Shown one piece after another: positions 5,127-42,728 of a DNA stretch of 42,728 bases. The DNA comes from a virus. The stretch covers positions 1 to 42,728 of the IMG/VR virus record IMGVR_UViG_3300012793_000001; one strand, given 5' to 3'. The translations under genes and the position numbers were made by a program. Position 1 is the first letter of the stretch, and each line of letters starts with the position of its first letter. Under the pieces are notes generated by a model. It made no database searches and was not told the DNA's origin. It saw only the letters and a program-made list of their open reading frames with translations.

Positions 5127-5264
5127 CTATTTAACCCCCATGATCCAAATCAGAGTTAACAAAAGTACAATGTTTAAACCAATGCTTAAATATGAAATTG
5201 CTTGGAGTTGTCGTGCTTTGTAAAAGTGATTTCTATTTAGACTTGCTAGCCATTTTTTCTTCAT
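5127..5264 (-). CDS. Micro-ORF, 45 aa, with one predicted TM helix (MKKKWLASLNRNHFYKARQLQAISYLSIGLNIVLLLTLIWIMGVK)
   Basis: Hand translated. AGGAGGAG RBS and a start/stop overlap with the flanking micro-ORFs. Confidence 0.5.
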   Translation of the reverse strand: MKKKWLASLNRNHFYKARQLQAISYLSIGLNIVLLLTLIWIMGVK

Positions 5265-5374
5265 GCTGACTCCTCCTTGAAATATCGATCAATCAAAGCG
5301 AGCGCTTCTTCTTTTGTAGAGACGGTATGCCACATTGTCGATCCGTTTGTTTCTATTGAGATAGTGATTTTCAT
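5261..5374 (-). CDS. Micro-ORF, 37 aa (MKITISIETNGSTMWHTVSTKEEALALIDRYFKEESA)
   Basis: Hand translated. AAAGGAGAAACCGC precedes the ATG, and the stop overlaps the next ATG. Confidence 0.45.
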   Translation of the reverse strand: MKITISIETNGSTMWHTVSTKEEALALIDRYFKEESA

Positions 5375-5381
5375 GCGGTTT

Positions 5382-5414
5382 CTCCTTTGGTATAATTGTT
5401 AAAAACTGGTGGTG
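5382..5414 (+). promoter_or_regulatory. Promoter/5'UTR cassette copy 1: extended -10 TGgTATAAT (TATAAT 5391..5396) followed by aaaaactGGTGGTG RBS
   Basis: ctcctttggtataattgttaaaaactggtggtg is near-identical to 7943..7982. It sits directly in front of the plus-strand gene at 5420. Confidence 0.65.
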
Positions 5415-7045: not shown

Positions 7046-7941
7046 GCTACTTCTCCTCCGATTTCTTGTTTGATTTGTTTTAATAATTTTTCAACTCTGG
7101 AAATTGAATCCGTGAGTTTTTGCTTTGTCTCATCATTCGCCCCAGCGATTGCTTGTGAATCGTATACCGTTACCGCTTGTTCTTTAACAAATTGATTCAT
7201 ATTGATAATGAGTTTGTGCACACTGATATCGGCATCACGTTGTAGACGTTTTAGTTGTGCTTGTTCTAGTTCATCGGTTTCAACCTTCGCTTTTTCTTGC
7301 AACGCTTTTTCGGAATCCGCTATCCGCTGTTTCAAAGCTTCTTGTTCAGCTTTAAGCGCTTGGTTTTCTCTGGTGATTTCATCAACGATCTTTGTAGATT
7401 GCTTAAGCTGCTGATAGTCGTCTGGAACCTTTTCGACAATGACTTCTTTTTCAATTACTTCCGTTTCTTGCTCATTCAGATCATCAATCATCTGTGCTTG
7501 TAGTTTATTTTGCTCATCCTTAGCTTTTAGCTGCTTTTCAAGCTCTCTGTATTCTTTGGTGGTTTTTATATCACCCGAGAGCACCATTTCTACTGCTTCT
7601 GGTTTAGCTGACGGTTTAGATATTTCTGTTTTGAGTGTGGTTGGTAGTTCTTGGAACATTTCGATTTGTTCGTATTCGTGCATTTGATGCACAAATTTGG
7701 CTTGATTGATATAGTTGTAAACAGTTCTCTTTTTTAAGCCGATTGACGTGAACCACTTTTCGAAGGTTCCTGTTTTATAACTTGCCAGCTTTTCTTGTGC
7801 TTCTATAAGTTTTTCTCCTAATTGAATCGAGCTATTCAAAACAATTGATTGTAGTTCTTGTTCTTTTAGTTTTAAAAATTGTGCAGTGGTATCATCTACT
7901 ATTGAATAGTCAAAATTTGTTGAAACTTCATTCAATGTCAT
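7030..7941 (-). CDS. DUF3102-like early protein with a long coiled coil (303 aa)
   Basis: N-terminal LGEKLIEAQEKLASYKTGTFEKWFTSIGLKKRTVYNYINQAKF resembles DUF3102. The C-terminal half is heptad-rich. Confidence 0.55.
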   Translation of the reverse strand: MTLNEVSTNFDYSIVDDTTAQFLKLKEQELQSIVLNSSIQLGEKLIEAQEKLASYKTGTFEKWFTSIGLKKRTVYNYINQAKFVHQMHEYEQIEMFQELPTTLKTEISKPSAKPEAVEMVLSGDIKTTKEYRELEKQLKAKDEQNKLQAQMIDDLNEQETEVIEKEVIVEKVPDDYQQLKQSTKIVDEITRENQALKAEQEALKQRIADSEKALQEKAKVETDELEQAQLKRLQRDADISVHKLIINMNQFVKEQAVTVYDSQAIAGANDETKQKLTDSISRVEKLLKQIKQEIGGEVAWVIN

Positions 7942-11471: not shown

Positions 11472-11530
11472 CAAACAGAAAATAACCAATAGGTTACGCC
11501 TATTGTAACAAATTCTAGGAGTTGAAGCAA

Positions 11531-12664
11531 TTGGCTAAGAAAGAACAGGATATCCGAATAAAAGAATACGTCAAAAAAAATGGCGAAAAAGCTTATATGT
11601 TTAAGCTGTATCTTGGCATTGATCAAGACACCAAAAAACCAATCCGCACTACAAGACGCGGCTTTAGAACTCAAAGAGAAGCACGTTTAGCAATCGCTGA
11701 TTTAGAACTAAACGGATTATCAAAACCAGAGTCTGAACCACAAATGATTCATACCTATGAACAGATATATAATCTATGGTATGAGGAATACAAAACAACA
11801 GTTAAAGCTTCAACGTTACTAAAAACAGAGCGAGTTTTCAAAAATCATATACTTCCAGCATTTGGTAATAAACCTATACAAGACATCAAACCGATGGATG
11901 CACAGAATCAAATGAATATTTGGCACAAGAAGCTTGTGCGTGCAAGCATGGTTATGAATTATGCTGGATTGGTATTTGATTACGCAATAAGAATGCAATT
12001 GATCAATATGAATCCAACAAAAGTGATTAAGAAGCCTGTAAGGAAGGAATCTGTTAGAGAAGACAAAGATATGAATTTCTATGACAAAGATGAGTTGAAG
12101 AAATTTATGGCAGCTTTAGAAAACAACAACAATTTTAGAGCTTTTGTATATTTTCGTTTGTTAGCATTTACCGGAATGCGCAAAGGAGAATCATTAGCGC
12201 TGAAATGGTCTGATATCGATTTGGAAAAACAAACATTATACATAAACAAGGCTGTTTCGAGAAGTGCAACAGGGCTTTATATTCAAACGCCAAAAACTCC
12301 TTCTTCTATTCGAAGAATCTCAATTGATGACAAAACTGTGTCTATATTACAAGAGTACAAAAAAGAGTCTCCAGATGGTTTAGTCTTTCAAAGTGAAGAT
12401 GGAGGAATATTATCGCCTGCTAAACCGAGAAAATGGTACCTAACTGCCATGAAAAACTTGCCGGATGATTTCAAACAGATATCTATTCATGGCTTTCGTC
12501 ACACACATGCATCATTATTATTTGAAGCCGGTGCTTCTATTAAAGACGTTCAATCAAGGCTTGGTCATTCTGACATCCAAACTACAATGGATGTATATAC
12601 CCACGTATCAAAAACAGCAAAAGAGCAGTTAGCAAATAGGTTTAATAATTACGTTGACTTTTAA
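11531..12664 (+). CDS. int: Tyrosine integrase
   Basis: TGMRKGESLAL (catalytic R), HGFRHTHASLL (HxxR) and LGHSDIQTTMDVYTHV (catalytic Y). Start moved to TTG 11531, 9 nt after AGGAG. Confidence 0.92.
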   Translation: MAKKEQDIRIKEYVKKNGEKAYMFKLYLGIDQDTKKPIRTTRRGFRTQREARLAIADLELNGLSKPESEPQMIHTYEQIYNLWYEEYKTTVKASTLLKTERVFKNHILPAFGNKPIQDIKPMDAQNQMNIWHKKLVRASMVMNYAGLVFDYAIRMQLINMNPTKVIKKPVRKESVREDKDMNFYDKDELKKFMAALENNNNFRAFVYFRLLAFTGMRKGESLALKWSDIDLEKQTLYINKAVSRSATGLYIQTPKTPSSIRRISIDDKTVSILQEYKKESPDGLVFQSEDGGILSPAKPRKWYLTAMKNLPDDFKQISIHGFRHTHASLLFEAGASIKDVQSRLGHSDIQTTMDVYTHVSKTAKEQLANRFNNYVDF

Positions 12665-13011: not shown

Positions 13012-14376
13012 ATGGGAAGTTTTCGATACGAACTTGAGCCCAAACGTGACATTCTTTTTATTGATGTAAAATCATTTTATGCTTCAGTTGAATGTGTTCA
13101 ACGTGGATTTCACCCAATGAAGACCATGTTGGTTGTCATGTCTCAATCTGATAATACAGGAAATGGGTTAGTCTTGGCTGCTTCGCCACTGGCAAAAAAG
13201 AAGTTAGGCATTTCAAATGTTACTCGTGCTGATAATTTACCAAACCATCCTTTATTGTTCAAGGTCCCTCCACGCATGAACTTATATATAAAAGAAAATT
13301 TGAAAGTAAACAACGTATTTAGAAAATATGTAGCCGATGAGGATCTACTCCTCTACTCTATTGATGAATCAATGATGGACGTAACTAAATCACTGAACTT
13401 GTTTGTCCCAGACAAAAGTTTGTCTCGAAGCGAAAGACGATGGCGACTAGCTAAGATGATTCAACGTGATGTCTATGACACGACAAAACTTTATGTGACT
13501 GTTGGTATTGGAGATAATCCTCTTTTGGCCAAACTAGCATTAGACAACGAATCGAAGCATAATAAATCACTTATTGCGGAATGGACCTATCAAGACGTGG
13601 AAAGTAAAGTTTGGAACATCTCTCCTATCACAGAATTTTGGGGCATTGGATCACGCACACAAAAACGACTTGAGCGAATGGGAATAGAAACGATAGAACA
13701 GCTCGCAAAGGCTAACCCCGATTTGTTGCGAAGTAGAATGGGGATCATAGGAGAACAGTTATACCATCATGCGAATGGAATTGATCGGACGATTATTTCT
13801 GAGCCAGCTCCTCAAATCAGAGATAAAAGTTATGGTAATAGCCAGGTACTAAATAGAAACTACTATCTACATGATGAAATAGAAATTGTCATCAAGGAAA
13901 TGGCTGAACAGGTTGCTGCACGTATTCGCAGACATCATTGCCAAACACAATGTATTCATCTTTATATTGGTGTTGCTTTTGGAGAAACACAAAAAGGATT
14001 CTCTAGACAAATGACTGTCCCACCAACAAATAACACAAAAGTATTGGTCTCGCACGCACTGTTCCTATTTCGTAAATATTATACTGGCCAAGTGGTTCGT
14101 CACGTTGGTATCACTTTTTCAAAATTAATTTACACATCAAGTGTTCAGCTTGATTTATTTGCTGATGCTGAGGACCAGATAAAGCAAATAAAACTGGATA
14201 AAATCATCGATAAGATACGTGAGAAGTACGGATTTACTTCTATCGTTCATGCCAACAGCAAGCTCGATGGCGCTCGTGCGATTGCAAGAAGTAAGCTAGT
14301 CGGTGGACACGCTGGTGGTATGGATGGAATATCTGATGAAGGGACTGATAAAAATAAACATCATAAGTCTGTATGA
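13012..14376 (+). CDS. Y-family (UmuC/DinB/UvrX-like) translesion DNA polymerase
   Basis: ILFIDVKSFYASVE, LYSIDESMMDVT and VGIGDNPLLAKLA motifs of the IMS/Y-family palm domain. GGAG RBS. Confidence 0.9.
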   Translation: MGSFRYELEPKRDILFIDVKSFYASVECVQRGFHPMKTMLVVMSQSDNTGNGLVLAASPLAKKKLGISNVTRADNLPNHPLLFKVPPRMNLYIKENLKVNNVFRKYVADEDLLLYSIDESMMDVTKSLNLFVPDKSLSRSERRWRLAKMIQRDVYDTTKLYVTVGIGDNPLLAKLALDNESKHNKSLIAEWTYQDVESKVWNISPITEFWGIGSRTQKRLERMGIETIEQLAKANPDLLRSRMGIIGEQLYHHANGIDRTIISEPAPQIRDKSYGNSQVLNRNYYLHDEIEIVIKEMAEQVAARIRRHHCQTQCIHLYIGVAFGETQKGFSRQMTVPPTNNTKVLVSHALFLFRKYYTGQVVRHVGITFSKLIYTSSVQLDLFADAEDQIKQIKLDKIIDKIREKYGFTSIVHANSKLDGARAIARSKLVGGHAGGMDGISDEGTDKNKHHKSV

Positions 14377-25123: not shown

Positions 25124-28100
25124 TATAACAACTCACCTGCCATTCTTTTTCTACTGATATCTTTCCTGTTTTGTGCATCTGTCACAATATCAGCTACTTC
25201 TTTTTCTTTCATTATTATTTTAAGGTTTCTCATGTCAGAACCTAATTGGTTAATCGCTCGAAGCATATCTTCAAATATCGAATTATCAAAGTTTACACTA
25301 AACTCACTCTTTTTCGCTTCTTGTGAGCCGTTATTCGTTACACTTTTCAAATTTCTAACTAATGTAGAATCTTCCGGAATACCTACACCGTCAGCATACT
25401 TTGGAATGCCCAAGCGCCGCATGATCGATTTGGTGATACTAGCTCGAGCAACCTTCGTTCCTGCAGGAGCATTGGGAATATACACATTTCGACCTTGAGG
25501 TATAAATGGAGCCTGACCAGGGAACTGAACCAACTCTTTGTATAATGGTCCAGGCTGATCATTTACGATCATATCTCCACCAGGGTGGTAATTTGTTCCT
25601 TTGGCATTTGGAATAGCTGTCTGTCCAGTTCTTCTCCCTCGATACTCGACATCAATTACGACATTTTTGCTATAAACCTGTGCAATTGCGTTTTTCGCCC
25701 TTTCAACTTCTGAATAATCCGCCGTAGCATGTAAATGTTTCGCTCCAACACTAGTTTCATTGTAGTTTCTGATTTTGGATTGCGCTGTATTGATATTATT
25801 GACAACACTTGTATTATCGCCAAACAACTTCTTCAATTCTGGACTTAATTTGTTGTACTTCTCTAAAGCCGACTGAGTCTGCTCAACCGTCAGCTTAGCT
25901 GGGTTATCAGCAATTAGGGTTTTAACTTCTGGAGGTAAAGCATTCCAATCAGACAGTTTCCCTTTAGTATCAAGCAACTTGTAAAGAGCATCTGTATTAT
26001 CTACACCTAAAGTTTTCCTATCAGAATTATAGGCATTCCATAATCCCATCTCTTCTATTGTGTCATATAAGTTGAGCATTGCTTCATCATTGCCCACAAG
26101 AAGCTTTTTGTCAGTAAGATAAAGATTGTTCCATTTACCCGATTCACCCATTGCAATGGCAATTTCTTCTTTTGCATTTGTGGAAATATCAGCGTTTTTA
26201 GCCATGAATTTCAGCTGTTCCCAACCTTCATCTGTCGAAGCCATGTCTTTCAATACATCAGCCATGTTGGTTCTGACTTCACCAGTTTTAGGATCGAGAG
26301 CCATCTGATTCCACTGGATATCGGCTTCTTCGGTGCCTTTAGCTAACATATCAAGATTTTTTGTTGTATCATCGACACTTGAATTCACTAAATCAGCAAC
26401 TTCATCAACGGTCCATCCATACTGCTGCCAAACAGATGACATTTGTTCCAAACTGTAGCCTTGTTCCAACCGTAGTTTTGCTAAACCTAATATCATAGAT
26501 TCAGAACTATTTTTATGTTCCTTATCCAATTCTTCAAGCAAAGCTTTTTGTCTTTGTACATTATCCTTAGTGCCTTCGATAATCGCTTTTCTATTCTGTT
26601 CATACTTCTCTTGTTCTGTATTTAAAGCTTTTCCAACACTATTTGCTCGTTCCTCAAGTTGTCTGTCAGTAAGCTTGCTTAATTTGTCTTGATACGCAGA
26701 TTCAATTGCAATTCGTTGTTCAGATGTAAAGCCAGCAAGTTTTAGCTGCTTATCTGATAACTGATTATAGTTTGCTTCTATATATGCTCGTTCCTGATCA
26801 GATAGTTCTCGGCTATTTTTACTTGCATCAGATAAAATTTTGTTGATACGGTCAACTCTTTTTTTTGCTTGATCCGCTAACTGCTCACCATATTTTTTAT
26901 CATTTTCAGCTTGCTGCTTTAAACTATCTTGAATGCCTTGGTTATCAACATCCTCAGCATTTTTCATTTTTCGTTGATATTCTTTGTCAATAGTTGCTTG
27001 TATAGAGTCAATAATTGCGTTGTTTGCTTTAATGGCTTTATCAGCCGATCCTTTAACTCCATCTGCATATTCATCAATGTACTTGACTGCCTTTTCCCGT
27101 AATTCATAAGACTTAGTAATCACTTTATCTTGTTCTTCGGTTACTTTAGTTCCCCACTTAGCTCCAGCAAGTTGGTGTTCGTCATATGCTTTTTTACCAA
27201 GATAAACTGCTCCAGCAACTGCACCTAATGCAGCAATACCTATGGCGACTGGTCCAGCCAAGCCTGCAATTGCTGTGCCCATACCGGCAATTCCTCCAGT
27301 TGTTGCTCCAGCTGTTCCAGCCCCAACTGCTGTTGTTGCGGCTGTTCCAACACCCGAAATTGAAGTTGCTAGGCCACCCAACGCTTTCTTTTCAGCTGCA
27401 TCAGCTGCAAGTTTGACAATACCCTTTGAAAGTTTTCCAACACCTTTAGTGACAGATCCAACTATAGAAATACCACTCCCAAGTAGTTTGAGAGTTGGAC
27501 CAGCTGCGGCAGCTATTAGTCCCCATTTGATAATGTTTCTTTGTTGTTCTTTATCTAAAGAGCTGAAAGACTTTGCTAGATTACCCAGACTTTTAATCAA
27601 AGGCTTAGAAGCTTCAAGACCATCTCTTAATGCATCAACAAGTGGACCCCCAAATTCAATAGCTGCATCTACTACTTCATTTTTCAACATCTTCAATTTG
27701 GATTCTGTTGTTTCATACCTTTTGCCTGCTTCTTCAGCAAGAGCCGTATTTTCGCCAAATGCTTTATTACCCATCTCAACTGCACCAGAGAAAACACCGC
27801 TAGCATTAGCAGCTCTTAGCAAGCTATCTCGCAATCGAACTTCTTTGATATCCATATCATCTAAGACTTTAATAGCAGATGTTCCGTTTTCTTCAGCTTT
27901 ACCAAGACCTTCAACAAATTTCATGATTGCCGTGCTTGGATCATCTTTGAACATTTTTGAAAATTGCTCGCCAGTTAGTCCAGCTACGTCAGCAAACTGC
28001 TCCAATGAGGTTTTTGATTTATCAGCTTCTTTGTACATCTTCTTCAATTCAGACGAAGTGAAGCCCATTTCTTTAGAAACACCAGTTAGTTCCTTGCCAC

Positions 28101-29300: not shown

Positions 29301-29854
29301 TTATCTATTGATTTCCTTAAACCAATCTTCCATAGAGACAACTTCTCTTCTATTGGCAGAAGGTTGATTGCTATCGGTGTCCGAAAACATAATTTCATCC
29401 AAGTATTGAACATCGGTTTCTAGAATTGTGTTGATGTTCCATCCCGGAAAAGTTAGAATAGTTTGTTTCATAAAGTTAATTAGAGAAGAGTAAAGTTCGC
29501 TTCCCTTTAGACTTCCTTTTTTGGGTCATCTTCCTCAACGACATCTGTTTTTTTCAATCCCAAAACTCGAAATAAAATGATATCCATAATAACGGTATCT
29601 TCAACATCAATGCCGTTCAAAATTGCATCGGCTGTCACTTGCTTGTCATCAAATAGACCAGCGACAAATTTTGCTCTAAATTCTGTTAATTCTTCAGATG
29701 TAGCAGGGTTAGGCTTTCCGTTTCCATCGACTCGTTCTACTAATTCAGTTTCTTCTCGCACATAGTCCAATCTTTTTTTGAATGGTACAAAATCTTGTGT
29801 AAAAGTTTTGGTTTTGCCATCTTTCATACGAAGAGATAACTTAATTTCTGTCAT
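29301..29854 (-). CDS. Tail assembly chaperone G-T fusion made by a -1 programmed frameshift
   Basis: The -1 frame stays open from the slip site to TAA 29303..29301 (KKGSLKGSELYSSLINFMKQTILTFPGW...EDWFKEINR), ending just before the tape measure RBS. Confidence 0.7.
29507..29854 (-). CDS. Tail assembly chaperone (gpG-like, 115 aa)
   Basis: Lies between the major tail/Ig-like genes and the tape measure gene. Acidic C-terminus. Confidence 0.8.
   Translation of the reverse strand: MTEIKLSLRMKDGKTKTFTQDFVPFKKRLDYVREETELVERVDGNGKPNPATSEELTEFRAKFVAGLFDDKQVTADAILNGIDVEDTVIMDIILFRVLGLKKTDVVEEDDPKKEV
29516..29522 (-). promoter_or_regulatory. Canonical -1 slippery heptamer A_AAA_AAG
   Basis: CCA AAA AAG, three codons before the gpG stop codon. 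Confidence 0.75.
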
Positions 29855-29867
29855 GTTCTTTCCTCCT

Positions 29868-29903
29868 AAAATAAATCAAAAAAGGCTAGTCAAATGACTA
29901 ACC
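29868..29903 (-). terminator. Intrinsic terminator overlapping the stop codon of the Ig-like protein gene
   Basis: On the minus strand: GGTTAGTCA-tt-TGACTAGCC followed by TTTTTTGATTTATTTT. Confidence 0.7.
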
Positions 29904-30344
29904 TTCAATAACAGTAATTGTGCATGTAGCTGTTTTTGCACCATCTTTTGTAGTAAAAGTAATATCAGTAGTCGCACCCACTGTTGCATCAGCTTTAACT
30001 GTGACTGTTCCACCACTCACTGTTGCTACGGCAGTATCAGAACTGGACCATGATCCAGATTTATCACTTGCGTTCTCGGGTAATACATTCGGTGTCAACT
30101 TAACTGACCCTCCAACAGCAACATCTGCTGTCGATTTATCTAAGCTTACACTCGAAACTGGAATAGGCAGCGTTTTAAAGGAAGGAATATCCACTTTCGA
30201 AGATTCGCTATCTCCTACAACACGTGTTGCTTTGTACTCCCCGGCAACTACACTTTTATTTGCTTCTTCTCCAGTAATTGTTAAAGGCGAAGGACCTTCT
30301 TTTACAATTGAATCACCTTTATATATTCTAAATGTCTCTACCAT
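29898..30344 (-). CDS. Free-standing Ig-like (Big_2-type) domain protein (148 aa)
   Basis: VSSVSLDKSTADVAVGGSVKLTPNVLPENASDKSGSWSSSDTAVATVSGGTVTVKA is a typical Big_2 repeat. Has its own ATG and RBS. Confidence 0.8.
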   Translation of the reverse strand: MVETFRIYKGDSIVKEGPSPLTITGEEANKSVVAGEYKATRVVGDSESSKVDIPSFKTLPIPVSSVSLDKSTADVAVGGSVKLTPNVLPENASDKSGSWSSSDTAVATVSGGTVTVKADATVGATTDITFTTKDGAKTATCTITVIEG

Positions 30345-30358
30345 ATTAATTTCCTTTC

Positions 30359-30430
30359 TTATGATAAATTGATAACTGCCCCGTCAGTTGTCGGCGTGAC
30401 ATTGCCAATCTCAGGGGAAGTTACTCCCCC
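30359..30430 (-). CDS. -1 frame C-terminal extension of the major tail protein (GGVTSPEIGNVTPTTDGAVINLS)
   Basis: The G5 run (30430..30426) straddles the last sense codons. The -1 frame is closed by TGA two codons upstream and ends at TAA 30361..30359. Homologous to 32429..32497. Confidence 0.6.
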   Translation of the reverse strand, partial: GGVTSPEIGNVTPTTDGAVINLS

Positions 30431-30996
30431 GCGGTGTCAAATAATTCCGCTTCAAGGGCTGTAAATGATTCATCCCCTACAGCAAATCCTACAGTCTCGT
30501 TATCGTCACCAATTTTTTTAGGAATAGGAGCGAAGGTAAATTGATCAGCCTCTGGTGTCGGAGTTGTTCCTTCTTTTGTATTCGCGGTGATAGATTCACG
30601 TCCAAATTTTCCAGCATATAATCCTGTTCCCATCTTTTCACCACGTAACGTTGATGATTCAAACAGAACTGCACAATAAGGCGGTTTTGTTTTCTCTCCA
30701 GCATGATAAACGCCATTCGTTGCTTTTGTGCGCCCTAATACTTCGTTTTCAACCTCAAAAGGCAAGTCTAGAGCACTAAAGGTAGCAGCAACCTCACCAG
30801 TTCCCTCTTGAATGATAAAATAAGGGATATCTGATCCATATACTTTGACTGCTTCTGGGGATAGTCCCGTAATTTCGAAAGCGCTAGTCGCGCCTTCATT
30901 TGTCTTCCCTTCGATTACATACTTTTTAGCGGGAACTGGCTTTAAACTTTCATCTAAGATTTGAATTGTCGCTCTTTTAAAACCTACTAATGTCAT
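30421..30996 (-). CDS. Major tail protein
   Basis: 191 aa. Lies after the head-tail joining genes and before the chaperone gene. Confidence 0.8.
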   Translation of the reverse strand: MTLVGFKRATIQILDESLKPVPAKKYVIEGKTNEGATSAFEITGLSPEAVKVYGSDIPYFIIQEGTGEVAATFSALDLPFEVENEVLGRTKATNGVYHAGEKTKPPYCAVLFESSTLRGEKMGTGLYAGKFGRESITANTKEGTTPTPEADQFTFAPIPKKIGDDNETVGFAVGDESFTALEAELFDTAGE

Positions 30997-30997
30997 G

Positions 30998-31372
30998 CTA
31001 TTTCCTCCTTGTATGAGTGTACTGTCTAATCAGTACATGAATATTTTCATTTTCCGAATGCGGTCTATCTTCCCCATATATTTGAAAGAAATCCGCTTCT
31101 TCCATCCCTCGATCTAATTTGTCGTTCAGTTCTTCAATATCTGTTTTCCCTAGATCAATAAAAGCCATTACCTGAATGCGATAGCTTCTTGAATGGTATT
31201 TGTCTGATCCGTGAGATCCGTTTGTTTCTCCTACATTTTCAATCTTGAAATATGGTACTTGATCTAAGCTTTGGTATTTTTTTGGTACTGTATAGGGAAA
31301 GAAAAGATTCGAATCAATCTCCGGAAATATTCTCGGCAATATATTTACCGCTACTTCCGCAACTGGCGTCAT
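30998..31372 (-). CDS. Tail completion / tail terminator-like protein
   Basis: Called from position and size (124 aa) in the head-tail joining cluster. Confidence 0.6.
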   Translation of the reverse strand: MTPVAEVAVNILPRIFPEIDSNLFFPYTVPKKYQSLDQVPYFKIENVGETNGSHGSDKYHSRSYRIQVMAFIDLGKTDIEELNDKLDRGMEEADFFQIYGEDRPHSENENIHVLIRQYTHTRRK

Positions 31373-31746
31373 AATCCTAATCCTCCTTTTAATTGTTCCA
31401 TATACTCTTGCATTACAGCTTCTGCTTCGGTATCAGCAGTTTTTTCTATAAAATGCTGTCCACTTTGGAATTCAGAACCCATATTTACAACGTGAGCACG
31501 GAAGTAAGCACCTCGACCATATCCAACATCAACATCACCATTATCTTGAACCGCGCCTACTGTTACTGTCTCTTCAAGTAAGATCTTTCCAGTTGATGCA
31601 TCAACTGGAGTATTCGCTTCTAAAGCTTCTCCAAGTTTGAAGCCTGCCGATTTTCCTGCCTTGCGACGGATCTTGCCTTCAACATCGGCAATGGTTTGTG
31701 CGACGTTTCTTTCTAAATCGCCAAGATCGATTGTTACACTCATCAT
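31369..31746 (-). CDS. HK97 gp10-family head-tail joining protein
   Basis: Called from size, position and the SEFQSGQHFIEKT region. Confidence 0.65.
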   Translation of the reverse strand: MMSVTIDLGDLERNVAQTIADVEGKIRRKAGKSAGFKLGEALEANTPVDASTGKILLEETVTVGAVQDNGDVDVGYGRGAYFRAHVVNMGSEFQSGQHFIEKTADTEAEAVMQEYMEQLKGGLGL

Positions 31747-32084
31747 TCCACCGCCTTTAGTATCAAAAGCATAAAATCCTCGTTTTCAACATCTGGATTG
31801 ATGTCAACAATGTTATATCGAACTCCCTTTATACTAACTATCATATCGGGAGTGACTGTTTGTTTTTGCTTTTGCCGAATCACAACGTTAACAGTGTTTT
31901 TATATGAAGTATCTTCACTTTTAACTTCGGTTAGATATTTCTGTTTGTATCCAAACCAAGGCCTCATCACCTCAACGTAATTCGGTATTTTTGTCCCATT
32001 AGGTCCTATTTTAAAACCATCTTGTTTCAAAAACTGCGCGCGTTTAGTGAGTTTTCCTGTACGACTAACCGCCAATAGGATCAC
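31743..32084 (-). CDS. Head closure / head-tail adaptor protein
   Basis: Called from size (113 aa) and position. IKGVRYNIVDINPDVENEDFMLLIL is typical of head-closure proteins. Confidence 0.65.
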   Translation of the reverse strand: MILLAVSRTGKLTKRAQFLKQDGFKIGPNGTKIPNYVEVMRPWFGYKQKYLTEVKSEDTSYKNTVNVVIRQKQKQTVTPDMIVSIKGVRYNIVDINPDVENEDFMLLILKAVE

Positions 32085-32415
32085 CTTCCTTAAACACCTT
32101 ATATTCCGCTTTTAATAATGAAACCAAGCTTGTATATCCCAAATCGAATTCTCGCAAGGTGCCATTCATATTACTTGATTCAATCGTTGCCGATCTAGCT
32201 TTGTAATAATGGTCAGCAAGCATTATGGCAGCAGTGTTAAGCAATTCCACAATCTCGTTTTCTTGAACATAGAAAGAGGGCTTGTCTCTTCCGAGTGCCC
32301 CCTTAATCGTTCCGATTGCTGTTGTAAATGCTCTAATCACTTCTTTGTCATCATCATCCGTATCAATTTTCATTGCAGCTTTGATTTCTTCTAAATCTTT
32401 TTTGGGATCTAACAT
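32065..32415 (-). CDS. gp6-like head-tail connector protein
   Basis: N-terminal LEEIKAAMKIDTDDDDKEVIRAF motif. First gene after the capsid gene. Confidence 0.7.
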   Translation of the reverse strand: MLDPKKDLEEIKAAMKIDTDDDDKEVIRAFTTAIGTIKGALGRDKPSFYVQENEIVELLNTAAIMLADHYYKARSATIESSNMNGTLREFDLGYTSLVSLLKAEYKVFKEGDPIGG

Positions 32416-32428
32416 ACTATGAGCCCCC

Positions 32429-32497
32429 TTATTGAAGCTCTATAACAGCTCCATCAGTTGTAGGATCTACCGATAGAACTTCAGGGGCTGTTATTTT
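32429..32497 (-). CDS. -1 frame C-terminal extension of the major capsid protein (K-ITAPEVLSVDPTTDGAVIELQ)
   Basis: The A4 run (32497..32494) includes the last sense codon AAA before TAA. The -1 frame runs to TAA 32431..32429. Homologous to 30359..30430. Confidence 0.6.
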   Translation of the reverse strand, partial: KITAPEVLSVDPTTDGAVIELQ

Positions 32498-33621
32498 GAC
32501 ACTGCAGCCAGACGGAACGCAGATGCTAGTTTGATACGATGGTCAAACCATGCCGTTACAACAAACAAATTAATACCAGTCTTAACGTCTTTGTCCTGTT
32601 CGTATAACGCATTGATATCATAGTTGAAATGAGAATATGAGAAGTCACCAATGACTGGAGTAACTGCTGCATCACTGAATACAACCGGTTTACCTAAAAT
32701 TTGCTCTGGTTGTGCAGTGTATAATGTAGCATTTCCATTCGCTAACGTTTCAATAATTTCAAGATAGTCAGCATAACGCATAACAATTTTTGCATTTTCT
32801 CGGTAGTCTTCATGCAAATCTGCAACTGCTCCTTTGATGGCTTTATACATGTCAGCTGCTTCGATTTTTTTAATGTTAACGACAGTCGTATCATAAAAGC
32901 TCATATGTTCTTCACCAGTTTTTGGCGTTGTTGCGAATGCTACTTTTCGTTCTTTAGCTGCCACCCCAGATTGCAAATTAGCTTCTACAGTAGTAACAAG
33001 ATTAGTGTTTGTTCCCAACAGAATGGTTTCAGAAATACCGGTAAATACTTTGAATTTATTGCGTGTAAACGAAACTGTGTCACCTGTTGCTTTAAGTTCT
33101 TTAGCTGTTTCTTTGTCCGCAATAAAGTCATCGTCATCGAGCGTGAAAGTAACTTTTGGAATTTCCAAATTTGGAATGCTTGTAATAGTTGATAAACCGC
33201 GAAGCTGATTTTTAACTACTGGATCAGAGATAACATCATTTGCAACAGTCTTAGGCAAGAATTTACCTCCACCTGTACTGTCGTCACCTAATACTTGGTA
33301 TACATCTGTTGGCACTGCTTCTTTTGCCATAGTTTTGCGGATTAATTCAGCTTTAGCATCAATTACTTTTTGTTTAGGATCGCTTGATTCTGAAAAGTTG
33401 CCTTTTGCTAAGCTGGCTTTCTGCTCGGCTTCTAATTGGTCATGCTGATTTTTGATAATTTCAAATCGTTGCTGCAAATCTCCCTTTGTTTGATTCAATT
33501 GATTCAATTCATCCATAGATGTTTTCGGATCAGCAGCTTTTTGAGTAATATCGTCATTTGTTTTTTGAATTTGGTTACCAATTGTAGCCATATCTTGTTT
33601 TAATTCGAAAATTGTTTTCAT
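32491..33621 (-). CDS. Major capsid protein (HK97 fold, with an N-terminal coiled-coil delta-like region)
   Basis: 376 aa. Follows the prohead protease gene. N-terminal coiled coil. Confidence 0.9.
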   Translation of the reverse strand: MKTIFELKQDMATIGNQIQKTNDDITQKAADPKTSMDELNQLNQTKGDLQQRFEIIKNQHDQLEAEQKASLAKGNFSESSDPKQKVIDAKAELIRKTMAKEAVPTDVYQVLGDDSTGGGKFLPKTVANDVISDPVVKNQLRGLSTITSIPNLEIPKVTFTLDDDDFIADKETAKELKATGDTVSFTRNKFKVFTGISETILLGTNTNLVTTVEANLQSGVAAKERKVAFATTPKTGEEHMSFYDTTVVNIKKIEAADMYKAIKGAVADLHEDYRENAKIVMRYADYLEIIETLANGNATLYTAQPEQILGKPVVFSDAAVTPVIGDFSYSHFNYDINALYEQDKDVKTGINLFVVTAWFDHRIKLASAFRLAAVSK

Positions 33622-42499: not shown

Positions 42500-42728
42500 T
42501 GGCTTGCTCCACAATGCCGTCAGAAGTACTAAAGTATTCTTTATCTAACAAGTCTTGATTTTGATAAATGTTTCCTACTACCTCTAATCGGTTTCTCGCA
42601 CTCATCAACTCTGTATCATAAATATGCTTCCCTTTGATTCTATATGCACCGCTATCCATTCTGTAAACTTGTACATAGCTGTGCCAGTAAGTATCACTGT
42701 AATTAACGGATGAACTTGTATGCAAAAG
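42489..42728 (-). CDS. YopX-domain protein, 3' part (same gene as 1..321; 42606..42728 duplicates 1..123)
   Basis: Continuous reading frame across the circular junction. Confidence 0.85.
   Translation of the reverse strand, partial: LLHTSSSVNYSDTYWHSYVQVYRMDSGAYRIKGKHIYDTELMSARNRLEVVGNIYQNQDLLDKEYFSTSDGIVEQANEN
42606..42728. repeat. Terminal overlap, identical to 1..123
   Basis: Direct comparison of the two ends. Confidence 0.95.

Follow-up and report, generated by a model that had tools for sequence, protein, structure and literature searches.

What purpose might be served by two short, related peptides encoded out of frame immediately behind the major capsid and the tail-tube genes of one and the same phage? 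The question arises from the virus record IMGVR_UViG_3300012793_000001, analysed here over its whole length of 42,728 nt (the window), in which the structural genes lie on the minus strand and in which an initial annotation had drawn attention to the two peptides, hereafter called tags. The answer that we favour, with a probability of roughly 0.7, is a split-domain display system: the tag, added by recoding, would be the A-B part of a fibronectin type III (FN3) domain and would dock in trans a free "headless" protein that carries the rest of the FN3 domain, followed by a bacterial immunoglobulin (Ig)-like Big_2 domain.

Two tags and their conservation

The capsid open reading frame (ORF) terminates with TCA AAA TAA, and its -1 frame continues as ..AVSK followed by ITAPEVLSVDPTTDGAVIELQ; the tail-tube ORF terminates with GCG GGG GAG TAA, and its -1 frame continues as ..TAG followed by GVTSPEIGNVTPTTDGAVINLS, each extension running to a stop codon (coordinates in Table 1). 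Both peptides lie in the frames and at the positions that the initial annotation had reported, with the same sequences. Its count of 13 identical residues also holds, nine of them using different synonymous codons and four the same codon, but the extensions are 21 and not 20 codons long, so that the identity is 13/21, with 8 residues that differ. At the nucleotide level 37/63 positions agree (59%). The ORF list of the window contains no start codon in either tag that would give an ORF of at least 20 aa, and both extensions end with TAA just before the next ribosome binding site (RBS), the TAA of the tail tag adjoining the RBS of the headless gene; both points had been made before.

The resemblance of the two tags is far beyond chance. 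When all 1080 stop-terminated 21-mers from the six frames of the window were compared with one another (about 583,000 pairs), the next-best pair reached 9/21, the only exceptions being two trivial 21/21 pairs contributed by the 123-nt terminal repeat. A hidden Markov model (HMM) of the tag matches the window at the capsid and tail tag positions only.

Relatives of the locus were not found at once. A megablast of the region against deposited phages gave no match, nor did a first profile search of genome contigs using the tail alignment, and a database search with the tag alone, doubled to reach the 40-aa minimum for a query, returned just 7 weak matches. Scanning with the N-terminal part of the 148-aa protein encoded next to the tail tag yielded 80 further loci. 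For each stop in all six frames of 95 sources, the 32 residues that precede it were then scanned with the tag HMM, which at a threshold of 12 bits gave 175 matches on the coding strand and 0 on the opposite strand. Two tags occur in 80 loci, one after a capsid-sized and one after a tail-tube-sized ORF. Both are kept in viral contigs with tail proteins 91-95% identical to that of the window, and also in contigs where this identity is only 46%.

Since most substitutions in the tag frame are synonymous and third codon positions are the most variable, the tags are selected as peptide, as the initial annotation had argued against an RNA or DNA element. Among 67 unique in-register tags, codon differences of one nucleotide are synonymous in 12,733 cases and non-synonymous in 4,968 (72% synonymous) in the tag frame, compared with ratios of 3,163:14,389 (18% synonymous) and 992:15,727 (6%) in the other two frames; codon entropy is 1.54 at position 3, and 0.86 and 0.79 at positions 1 and 2. 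The peptide is not tied to one kind of carrier. Tagged proteins come from at least five capsid and two tail-tube Pfam families, the capsids from PF05065, PF03864, PF25209, PF20036 and PF20911 and the tail proteins from PF04630 and PF06199; there are further carriers without Pfam assignment, and one of the carrier phages is a myovirus. Moreover, the capsid and tail tags of one genome are more alike than tags taken from different genomes (0.58 vs 0.52, permutation p ~1e-4), and lineage-specific variants are common to both tags of a genome. In addition, the small unrelated proteins P0193 and P0197 (61 aa) and P0195 (72 aa) end in in-frame tags, e.g. ..SNAKPITPTVESVTPTTDGANIELT, which suggests that the proposed docking may involve additional carriers of this kind.

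A fibronectin type III domain in two pieces

The gene that follows the tail tag has its own RBS and start codon and would give rise to a free protein of 148 aa, comprising an FN3 domain from strand C on and a Big_2 domain. The initial annotation had described this neighbour as Ig-like and missed that its N-terminal 62 residues are the remainder of a domain. The Big_2 part is matched by Foldseek to the C-terminal domain of lambda gpV, the Big_2 domain of the phi29 capsid and T5 pb6. Headless homologues nearly all start with M-x-x-[FY]-x-[IV]-Y-[KR]-G, and some are textbook FN3 domains from strand C on: P0069 matches Pfam fn3 at positions 48-83, and another homologue has been named an FN3 protein by NCBI. 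In keeping with an incomplete fold, headless proteins begin at about position 30 of the fn3 HMM.

What the tag adds to this picture emerged from 36 genomes chosen solely for a homologous capsid. In L103/104, L107, L109, L110, L112, L113 and L116 a complete FN3 domain occupies the same 3' frameshift site and is reached by a +1 or -1 shift, while L097, L098, L102, L105, L118 and L131 carry at this place a tag, a stop codon, an RBS, an ATG and a headless FN3-Big_2 ORF. An unsplit extension thus reads PKAPQSLTVTSKTDSSVSLSWEAVEYSGGIDKYEIYRDGE..., and a split one PKQPQQLLATKTDTSVSLSWS up to a stop, followed after an interval by MMSTTYNVYRDGE.... All seven unsplit extensions match Pfam fn3 (PF00041; best E 3e-13). 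In a joint alignment the tags, including both tags of the window, correspond to strands A and B, and the break falls into the B-C loop. A profile of window-type tags joined to headless sequences aligns with the unsplit extensions with 95% probability in hhalign (E 3.9e-8, columns 4-77 vs 3-82), and the match runs unbroken across the junction from tag position 4 to the G strand. In the corresponding chimera of L007 the fn3 HMM itself spans the junction (24.4 bits, HMM positions 10-83). The best 120 database matches to the chimera profile included no unsplit member, and a search of PDB sequences with this profile gave weak matches only, the best being Tuc2009 BppA (E 0.055). On the strength of these alignments, the tag and the N-domain of the 148-aa neighbour are two pieces of one FN3 domain. 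Attempts to use database proteins bearing tags as alignment rows were abandoned, as MAFFT placed the tags after the G strand or on the Big_2 domain, and the idea that the initiator Met replaces the FN3 tryptophan was dropped, a homologue being found to lose its Met.

In this capsid family the C-terminus is a hot spot for appended material, all of it reached by shifts: besides FN3 and Big_2 domains there are a 92-aa domain of unknown type (L123-L125) and Thr-rich linkers (L099). L096, whose capsid is 90% identical to that of the window, has neither tags nor a headless gene; a complete Big_2 domain lies in the -1 frame after its capsid gene (5131-5403, with an A-run slip site) and a Big_2-like open frame after its tail gene (7415-7705). 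L100 likewise has a complete Big_2 domain at 5131-5391. In L102 (5155-5260) the tag and the headless ORF share one frame and are separated by two stops and an RBS, and in L131 (5167-5230) the headless ATG follows immediately on the stop codon of the tag; both arrangements look like early stages of the split.

Given such variation, it could be argued that the tags are decaying, unused leftovers of full extensions, and that the free Ig-like protein, whether it decorates the virion or belongs to the tail, has nothing to do with them. Near relatives of the same capsid do carry full Big_2 or FN3 domains at this place, and gain and loss are frequent. Leftovers, however, would not persist at both genes in 80 loci. 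Nor would one expect the 21-codon frame to be open and always to stop just before the next RBS, or purifying selection to reach down to 46% tail identity and into other carrier families, and this explanation is scarcely credible.

Routes into the tag frame

According to the mechanism proposed here, a fraction of ribosomes would slip by -1 near the ends of the capsid and tail-tube genes, on a run of A or G that abuts the stop codon and with the help of a hairpin, and would then add the 21-residue C-terminal tag before they stop. In the capsid gene, while the stop codon occupies the A site, tRNA-Lys would move from its AAA codon to the AAA one base back. In the tail gene, tRNA-Gly on GGG would re-pair one base back on GGG to give ..AGGV..; an alternative slip of tRNA-Glu at GAG would give ..AGEV... 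The A4 and G5 runs of the window do allow perfect re-pairing of these two tRNAs (Lys and Gly), and the shifted frames are open, lack a start codon of their own and are conserved as coding. In the tail gene, a TGA shuts the -1 frame two codons upstream of the G5 run.

The initial annotation had placed the entry at a homopolymer next to a stop codon, and this is borne out by the relatives. In all relatives of the -1 type, a run that permits re-pairing comes to its end 0-1 codon ahead of the stop; the runs seen are G_GGA_AAG_TAG, G_GGA_AAA_TAG, A_AAA_AAA_TAG, CGGGGGAG_TAA, GGGGAAG_TAG, GAAAAG_TAG and CAAAG_TAA, and also G_GGA_AAC; stable hairpins follow downstream. A -1 slip, which it took as the sole plausible entry at the two junctions of the window, is not the route in all relatives. 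A +1 shift leads to a homologous tag at CCC_TAA in L007, L102, L105 and L118, and at TTA_CCC_AGC_TAA in both head and tail of the Staphylococcus phage phiSLT. In phiEf11-type tails, the tag is in frame, one base away from relatives that need a -1 shift. At the window sites, a P-site slip with the stop codon in or beside the A site is the likely route, in which the adjoining stop codon probably stands in for the A-site slip.

The hairpin starts 3-6 nt after the stop codon, and its arms are formed by the S-P-x-V codons and the P-T-T-D-G-A codons. Over 73 junctions, not independent of one another, native hairpins are more stable than recodings that preserve the peptide, with a mean z of -1.77, values below -1 in 81% and a Wilcoxon p of 3e-13. 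In the tail stem-loop of the window, CCCCU pairs with the GGGG of the T-D-G-A codons and UUGGC with GCCGA. The capsid hairpin of the window has a longer stem, whose 3' arm (32422-32428, minus strand) pairs with the GGGGG of the RBS of the head-tail connector gene (ATG at 32415), and translation of the connector gene may depend on ribosomes that open the hairpin.

These hairpins lend themselves to a reading in which the conserved element acts as RNA only, for instance as a hairpin that controls the next gene, and is never translated, the peptide similarity being a by-product. The reality of the hairpins, selection on them in excess of what the peptide demands, and the pairing of the one behind the capsid gene with the RBS of the next gene would agree with such a role. 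What makes it highly implausible as the whole explanation is the coding-frame pattern of the substitutions, together with the persistence of the same peptide at 59% nucleotide identity between the two window copies, its in-frame occurrence at some protein C-termini and its homology to translated FN3 strands; a mass peak that fits a tagged tail protein is described below.

Proposed docking in trans: evidence, alternatives and known systems

The headless gene begins 4-18 nt past a tag stop in 61/61 unique pairs. Depending on the phage, the tag that precedes it follows the tail gene (window, phiEf11, phiSLT) or the capsid gene. Among the genomes selected by capsid alone, headless ORFs are found only after tags, and tagless loci are without any. 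As each genome has two tags but one headless gene, at least one of the tags would have to be served in trans. Tag and headless domain can also occur on one polypeptide, as in the database proteins P0113 and P0115. In the Staphylococcus Kayvirus Team1 (L094:2837-4246), ORF159 (210 aa) has an in-frame C-terminal tag, ORF160 is a headless FN3-Big_2 protein with a C-terminal tag of its own, and ORF161 is a headless FN3 protein of 75 aa; together they form a possible chain. The three ORFs are located in the region of the replication genes.

Published virion data on homologous systems bear on the fate of these proteins. Six Triavirus phages analysed by MALDI-TOF mass spectrometry of intact virions share peaks at 7,936, 11,645, 12,598, 15,871, 23,295, 25,208 and 30,373 (Štveráková et al. 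2018, PMC5923470). In that study the 23,295 peak was attributed to the tail protein, the 15,871 peak to an "Ig-like domain" protein, and 25,208 was left unassigned (PMC5923470). For phage 47, the tail protein without its Met has a computed mass of 23,294.7 Da and the headless protein, likewise without Met, one of 15,871.2 Da; the +1 tail product (..GSLP- continued by ANPQNVEVAVNSKSATVSAE) is computed at 25,204.7 Da against the observed peak at 25,208, and the 12,598 peak fits a doubly charged ion of the 25,208 species. Masses computed for the window proteins lacking Met are 20,286.5 Da for the tail protein, 22,281.6 Da (..AGGV..) or 22,353.7 Da (..AGEV..) for its tagged form and 14,929.4 Da for the 148-aa protein, and the tag would add 2,150.4 Da to the capsid protein; the tail tag is part of a very long tryptic peptide. 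In homologous systems, the headless protein is thus free in the virion, and a species with the mass of tail plus tag is present. All three proteins of the Kayvirus chain were also found in virions as separate species of 23,069, 17,718 and 7,818 Da (PMC5923470). Virions of phiEf11 contain two major head protein bands of 41 and 38 kDa (Stevens et al. 2016, PMC5221750), for which the authors proposed a -1 shift at AAAAAAA, a 21-aa extension and a stem-loop, a proposal that they called speculative (PMC5221750). The initial annotation had overlooked this printed precedent. The phiEf11 tail protein ORF15 (L092:2892-3485) carries the tag in frame and hence on every subunit; it migrates at 28-30 kDa instead of the predicted 21.5 kDa, which the authors could not explain (PMC5221750).

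The most likely explanation of this genetic coupling, and of the free and tagged species in virions, is physical docking: the tag would supply the first two beta-strands (A and B) of the FN3 domain, and a tagged capsid or tail subunit would provide the free protein with the part missing from its FN3 sandwich, strands A-B pairing with strand E (PLTITG). In this way, Big_2 domains encoded by a single gene would come to be displayed on both head and tail, and the frequency of frameshifting would determine how densely. By analogy with literature on other phages, these Big_2 domains may have an adhesive role. The initial annotation had speculated that the tag serves as a common docking or strand-donor element for its Ig-like neighbour; this is the best-supported mechanism, now with the tag as FN3 strands A-B and the neighbour as the fold from strand C, although two AlphaFold2 runs left the tag undocked.

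It is conceivable that the translated tags have a function in which the headless protein is not bound, the adjacency of the two reflecting no more than common descent from an extension that was once unsplit. The tag might, for example, contribute a strand to an adjacent subunit of capsid or tail or have a different partner, and the headless protein would fold and attach by other contacts. In its favour, the AlphaFold2 models show a confident fold of the headless N-domain that makes no use of the tag, which stays undocked, and in the window 2 kb separate the capsid tag from the headless gene. Without A-B, however, one sheet of the FN3 domain keeps only strand E; in the models of the N-domain, strands C, C', F and G are formed and E has no pairing partner. 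In addition, tag and headless gene co-occur strictly across unrelated carrier proteins, the tags co-vary within genomes, and chains of headless proteins that themselves carry a tag make little sense without pairing. Independent action of tag and neighbour is therefore unlikely, though it deserves some weight.

Alternatively, the pieces might be joined in cis, by a second recoding event (shift, hop or readthrough) past the tag stop that would yield a tail-FN3-Big_2 fusion. The first two lineages compared (WIN-type and L004-type) have the headless ORF in the -1 frame relative to the tail tag, and L102 and L118 have both in one frame. Yet a strong RBS and an ATG always lie between the tag and the headless ORF, behind the capsid tag it is the connector gene that follows, with no conserved frame relation, and a hop would find no matching codons for take-off and landing. 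The Triavirus headless protein, moreover, is free at 15,871 Da from its own Met-processed N-terminus, next to a species of tail plus tag only (PMC5923470). A hop or second shift over the tag stop was rejected on these grounds (codons, capsid-side frame and free virion species), and joining in cis in any form is very improbable.

Several observations weigh against docking of a recoded tag in trans. A Pfam scan of the window's own tag/headless chimera gives no fn3 match, and a Foldseek search with the model of the N-domain returns a list that is mostly FN3 but non-significant (best E 0.17), so that the FN3 assignment for the window rests on profile-profile homology. In the two AlphaFold2 runs, with the tag fused to the headless protein, the tag is disordered (predicted local distance difference test score <50) and the rest is confident; with almost no alignment depth over the tag, this evidence is weak, but it is negative nonetheless. 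At the slip sites of the window, C_AAA_A and G_GGG_GAG stand in place of a canonical X_XXY_YYZ heptamer. No one hairpin common to the relatives emerges from RNAalifold, because the pairing register differs between lineages, and the control with synonymous recodings was used in place of a consensus. Mass spectrometry of phiEf11 found no extension peptides (PMC5221750). The assignment of the 25,208 peak to the tagged tail protein is ours by inference, not that of its authors, and the evidence for tagged subunits comes from homologues, the expression and proteomic data covering phages other than that of the window.

The features discussed are collected in Table 1. The contig itself is that of a temperate siphovirus with 37.6% G+C, an integrase and an amidase endolysin, and the nearest capsids among species genomes are those of Enterococcus and Listeria. 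A direct repeat of 123 nt, identical at both ends (1-123 and 42606-42728), indicates that it is circular or terminally redundant, i.e., a complete phage genome assembly. Between the integrase gene (11522-12664, plus strand) and the lysis genes lies a gene for a Y-family (ImpB/MucB/SamB) DNA polymerase (13012-14376, plus strand), probably a lysogenic-conversion (moron) gene. A third site of recoding in the operon of the two carrier genes belongs to the gene for the tail assembly chaperone (29854..29507, PF23857), which has a canonical A_AAA_AAG heptamer at 29516-29522 (minus strand); its -1 frame of about 70 codons (..PKKGSLKGSE..MKQTILTFPGW..EINR, then a stop) extends to 29301, as far as the tape-measure gene, and the arrangement is that of the usual G/GT-type frameshift.

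Table 1. Elements of the capsid and tail-tube loci and of the headless gene in the window
Feature	Position	Strand	Evidence and remarks
Major capsid protein gene, 376 aa, HK97-like	32491..33621	-	Pfam PF05065, E 5e-14; carrier of the capsid tag
Capsid slip site, A4 run (TCA AAA TAA)	32494..32497	-	sequence; CAAAG_TAA, A_AAA_AAA_TAG or G_GGA_AAA_TAG at this position in relatives
Capsid tag, ITAPEVLSVDPTTDGAVIELQ, 21 codons of the -1 frame plus TAA	32429..32494 (codons 32494..32432, stop 32431..32429)	-	tag HMM 36.4 bits; aligns with strands A-B of unsplit FN3 extensions
Capsid stem-loop, beginning 4 nt past the capsid stop	32422..32489	-	-28.3 kcal/mol, z -3.5 vs dinucleotide shuffles
Tail-tube protein gene, 191 aa	30421..30996	-	Pfam PF04630, E 2e-17; carrier of the tail tag
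Tail slip site, G5 run (GCG GGG GAG TAA)	30426..30430	-	sequence; CGGGGGAG_TAA/TAG is the commonest junction in relatives
Tail tag, VTSPEIGNVTPTTDGAVINLS, 21 codons of the -1 frame plus TAA	30359..30424 (codons 30424..30362, stop 30361..30359)	-	tag HMM 40.4 bits; FN3 strands A-B by alignment
Tail stem-loop, directly behind the tail slip site	30373..30423	-	-18.8 kcal/mol, z -3.2 (dinucleotide shuffles; 0/200 as stable); z -3.1 vs synonymous recodings
RBS of the headless gene (GAAAGGAAA)	30350..30358	-	between tag stop and ATG, which are 14 nt apart; same layout in all 61 unique tag/headless pairs
Residues 1-62 of the 148-aa protein, FN3 from strand C (headless), proposed tag acceptor	30159..30344	-	hhalign, Pfam match of a homologue, AlphaFold2
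Big_2 (bacterial Ig-like) domain and stop codon of the 148-aa protein, proposed displayed module	29898..30158	-	PF02368, E 2e-13, 50.3 bits vs cut-off 22.8, residues 63-143

Ig-like or FN3 domains appended by frameshifting to phage capsid and tail proteins were reportedly described by Fraser et al. in 2006. As in those cases, recoding here takes place at the 3' end of both the major capsid and the tail-tube gene, beside the stop codon, by -1, by +1 or in frame and apparently without preference, and places an Ig-like module on a fraction of the subunits; close relatives of the window capsid indeed append a whole FN3 or a whole Big_2 domain. In contrast, the extension considered here comprises 21 residues (two strands) and ends at TAA and is not a complete Ig-like domain, the remainder of which is produced separately, from a gene that has an RBS and an ATG to itself and would serve two differently tagged carriers. 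In the donor-strand complementation and exchange of chaperone-usher pili, a deliberately incomplete Ig-like fold is completed by a strand of another polypeptide. The split FN3 system would share with these pili an ordered, non-covalent assembly that could lead to head-to-tail chains, as perhaps in Kayvirus ORF159-161. The two are not homologous, however: two N-terminal FN3 strands and not the last strand are missing, a C-terminal tag would act as the donor, there is no sign of a chaperone and complementation is, in our case, inferred.

Recoded additions of this kind are known from SPP1 gp17.1*, the head and tail of Lactobacillus phage A2, Cps and Tsh of the Listeria phages PSA, A118 and A500, and the T3 capsid (PMC5009743), and the proposed display would match the cis extensions of close relatives and of SPP1, A2, PSA and T3 as well as lambda gpV (PMC5009743; Foldseek). 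The head protein of phiEf11, part of a homologous system, has an A7 slip site, a TAG stop, a 21-codon -1 frame (KKIEAPKVESVIPTTDGASIVLS, then a stop) and a downstream stem-loop; its authors treated it as a plain extension and drew no link to the in-frame peptide of ORF15, to ORF16 (the headless protein) or to FN3 (PMC5221750). T4 Hoc and T5 pb10 (PMC5292684) are likewise separate small proteins with Ig-like domains on the outside of the assembled capsid, but they bind a surface site of the capsid lattice via a dedicated domain and are not known to complete their fold with a recoded tag or to decorate the tail as well. Hence 3' recoding of capsid and tail genes that adds Ig-like domains was already known, and the 21-residue extension of phiEf11 had been proposed in print; a search of the full-text literature found no description of an FN3 split, of a tag shared by head and tail or of assembly in trans. 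Cryo-EM work on Brochothrix phage NF5 and on Nocturne116, and a study of a gut-phage adhesin, proved to have no bearing on the matter.

In more general terms, we lean towards the view that these loci represent a natural, non-covalent "tag and catcher", in which a stop-RBS-start cassette would split an FN3 domain in the B-C loop, a tag on any carrier would recruit the headless adaptor, and proteins with both a headless domain and a tag could chain. Such a system would be widespread, and so far unannotated, in phages of Enterococcus, Staphylococcus (the Triavirus that converts to Panton-Valentine leukocidin (PVL) production and the therapeutic Kayvirus), Bacillaceae, Paenibacillus and lactobacilli. 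The recoded tags are unannotated in the public records examined (phiEf11, phiSLT and phage 47), and a tag is present in about 95 examined loci, including PVL-converting phages and phage-therapy strains. Small ORFs listed as "major tail protein" or "Ig-like" could be renamed, and two loose ends in the literature, the two capsid bands of phiEf11 and the unassigned 25.2 kDa Triavirus peak, would perhaps be explained. As a possible tool, a 21-residue tag and a 62-residue acceptor may provide a compact module for phage display and virion engineering. With split and unsplit forms at the same frameshift site of homologous capsids, these loci offer a clear example of how a domain undergoes fission. 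Should docking be confirmed, part of the decoration protein's own fold would come from the virion by way of a recoded tag, one gene would serve both head and tail, and the frameshift rates would set the copy number.

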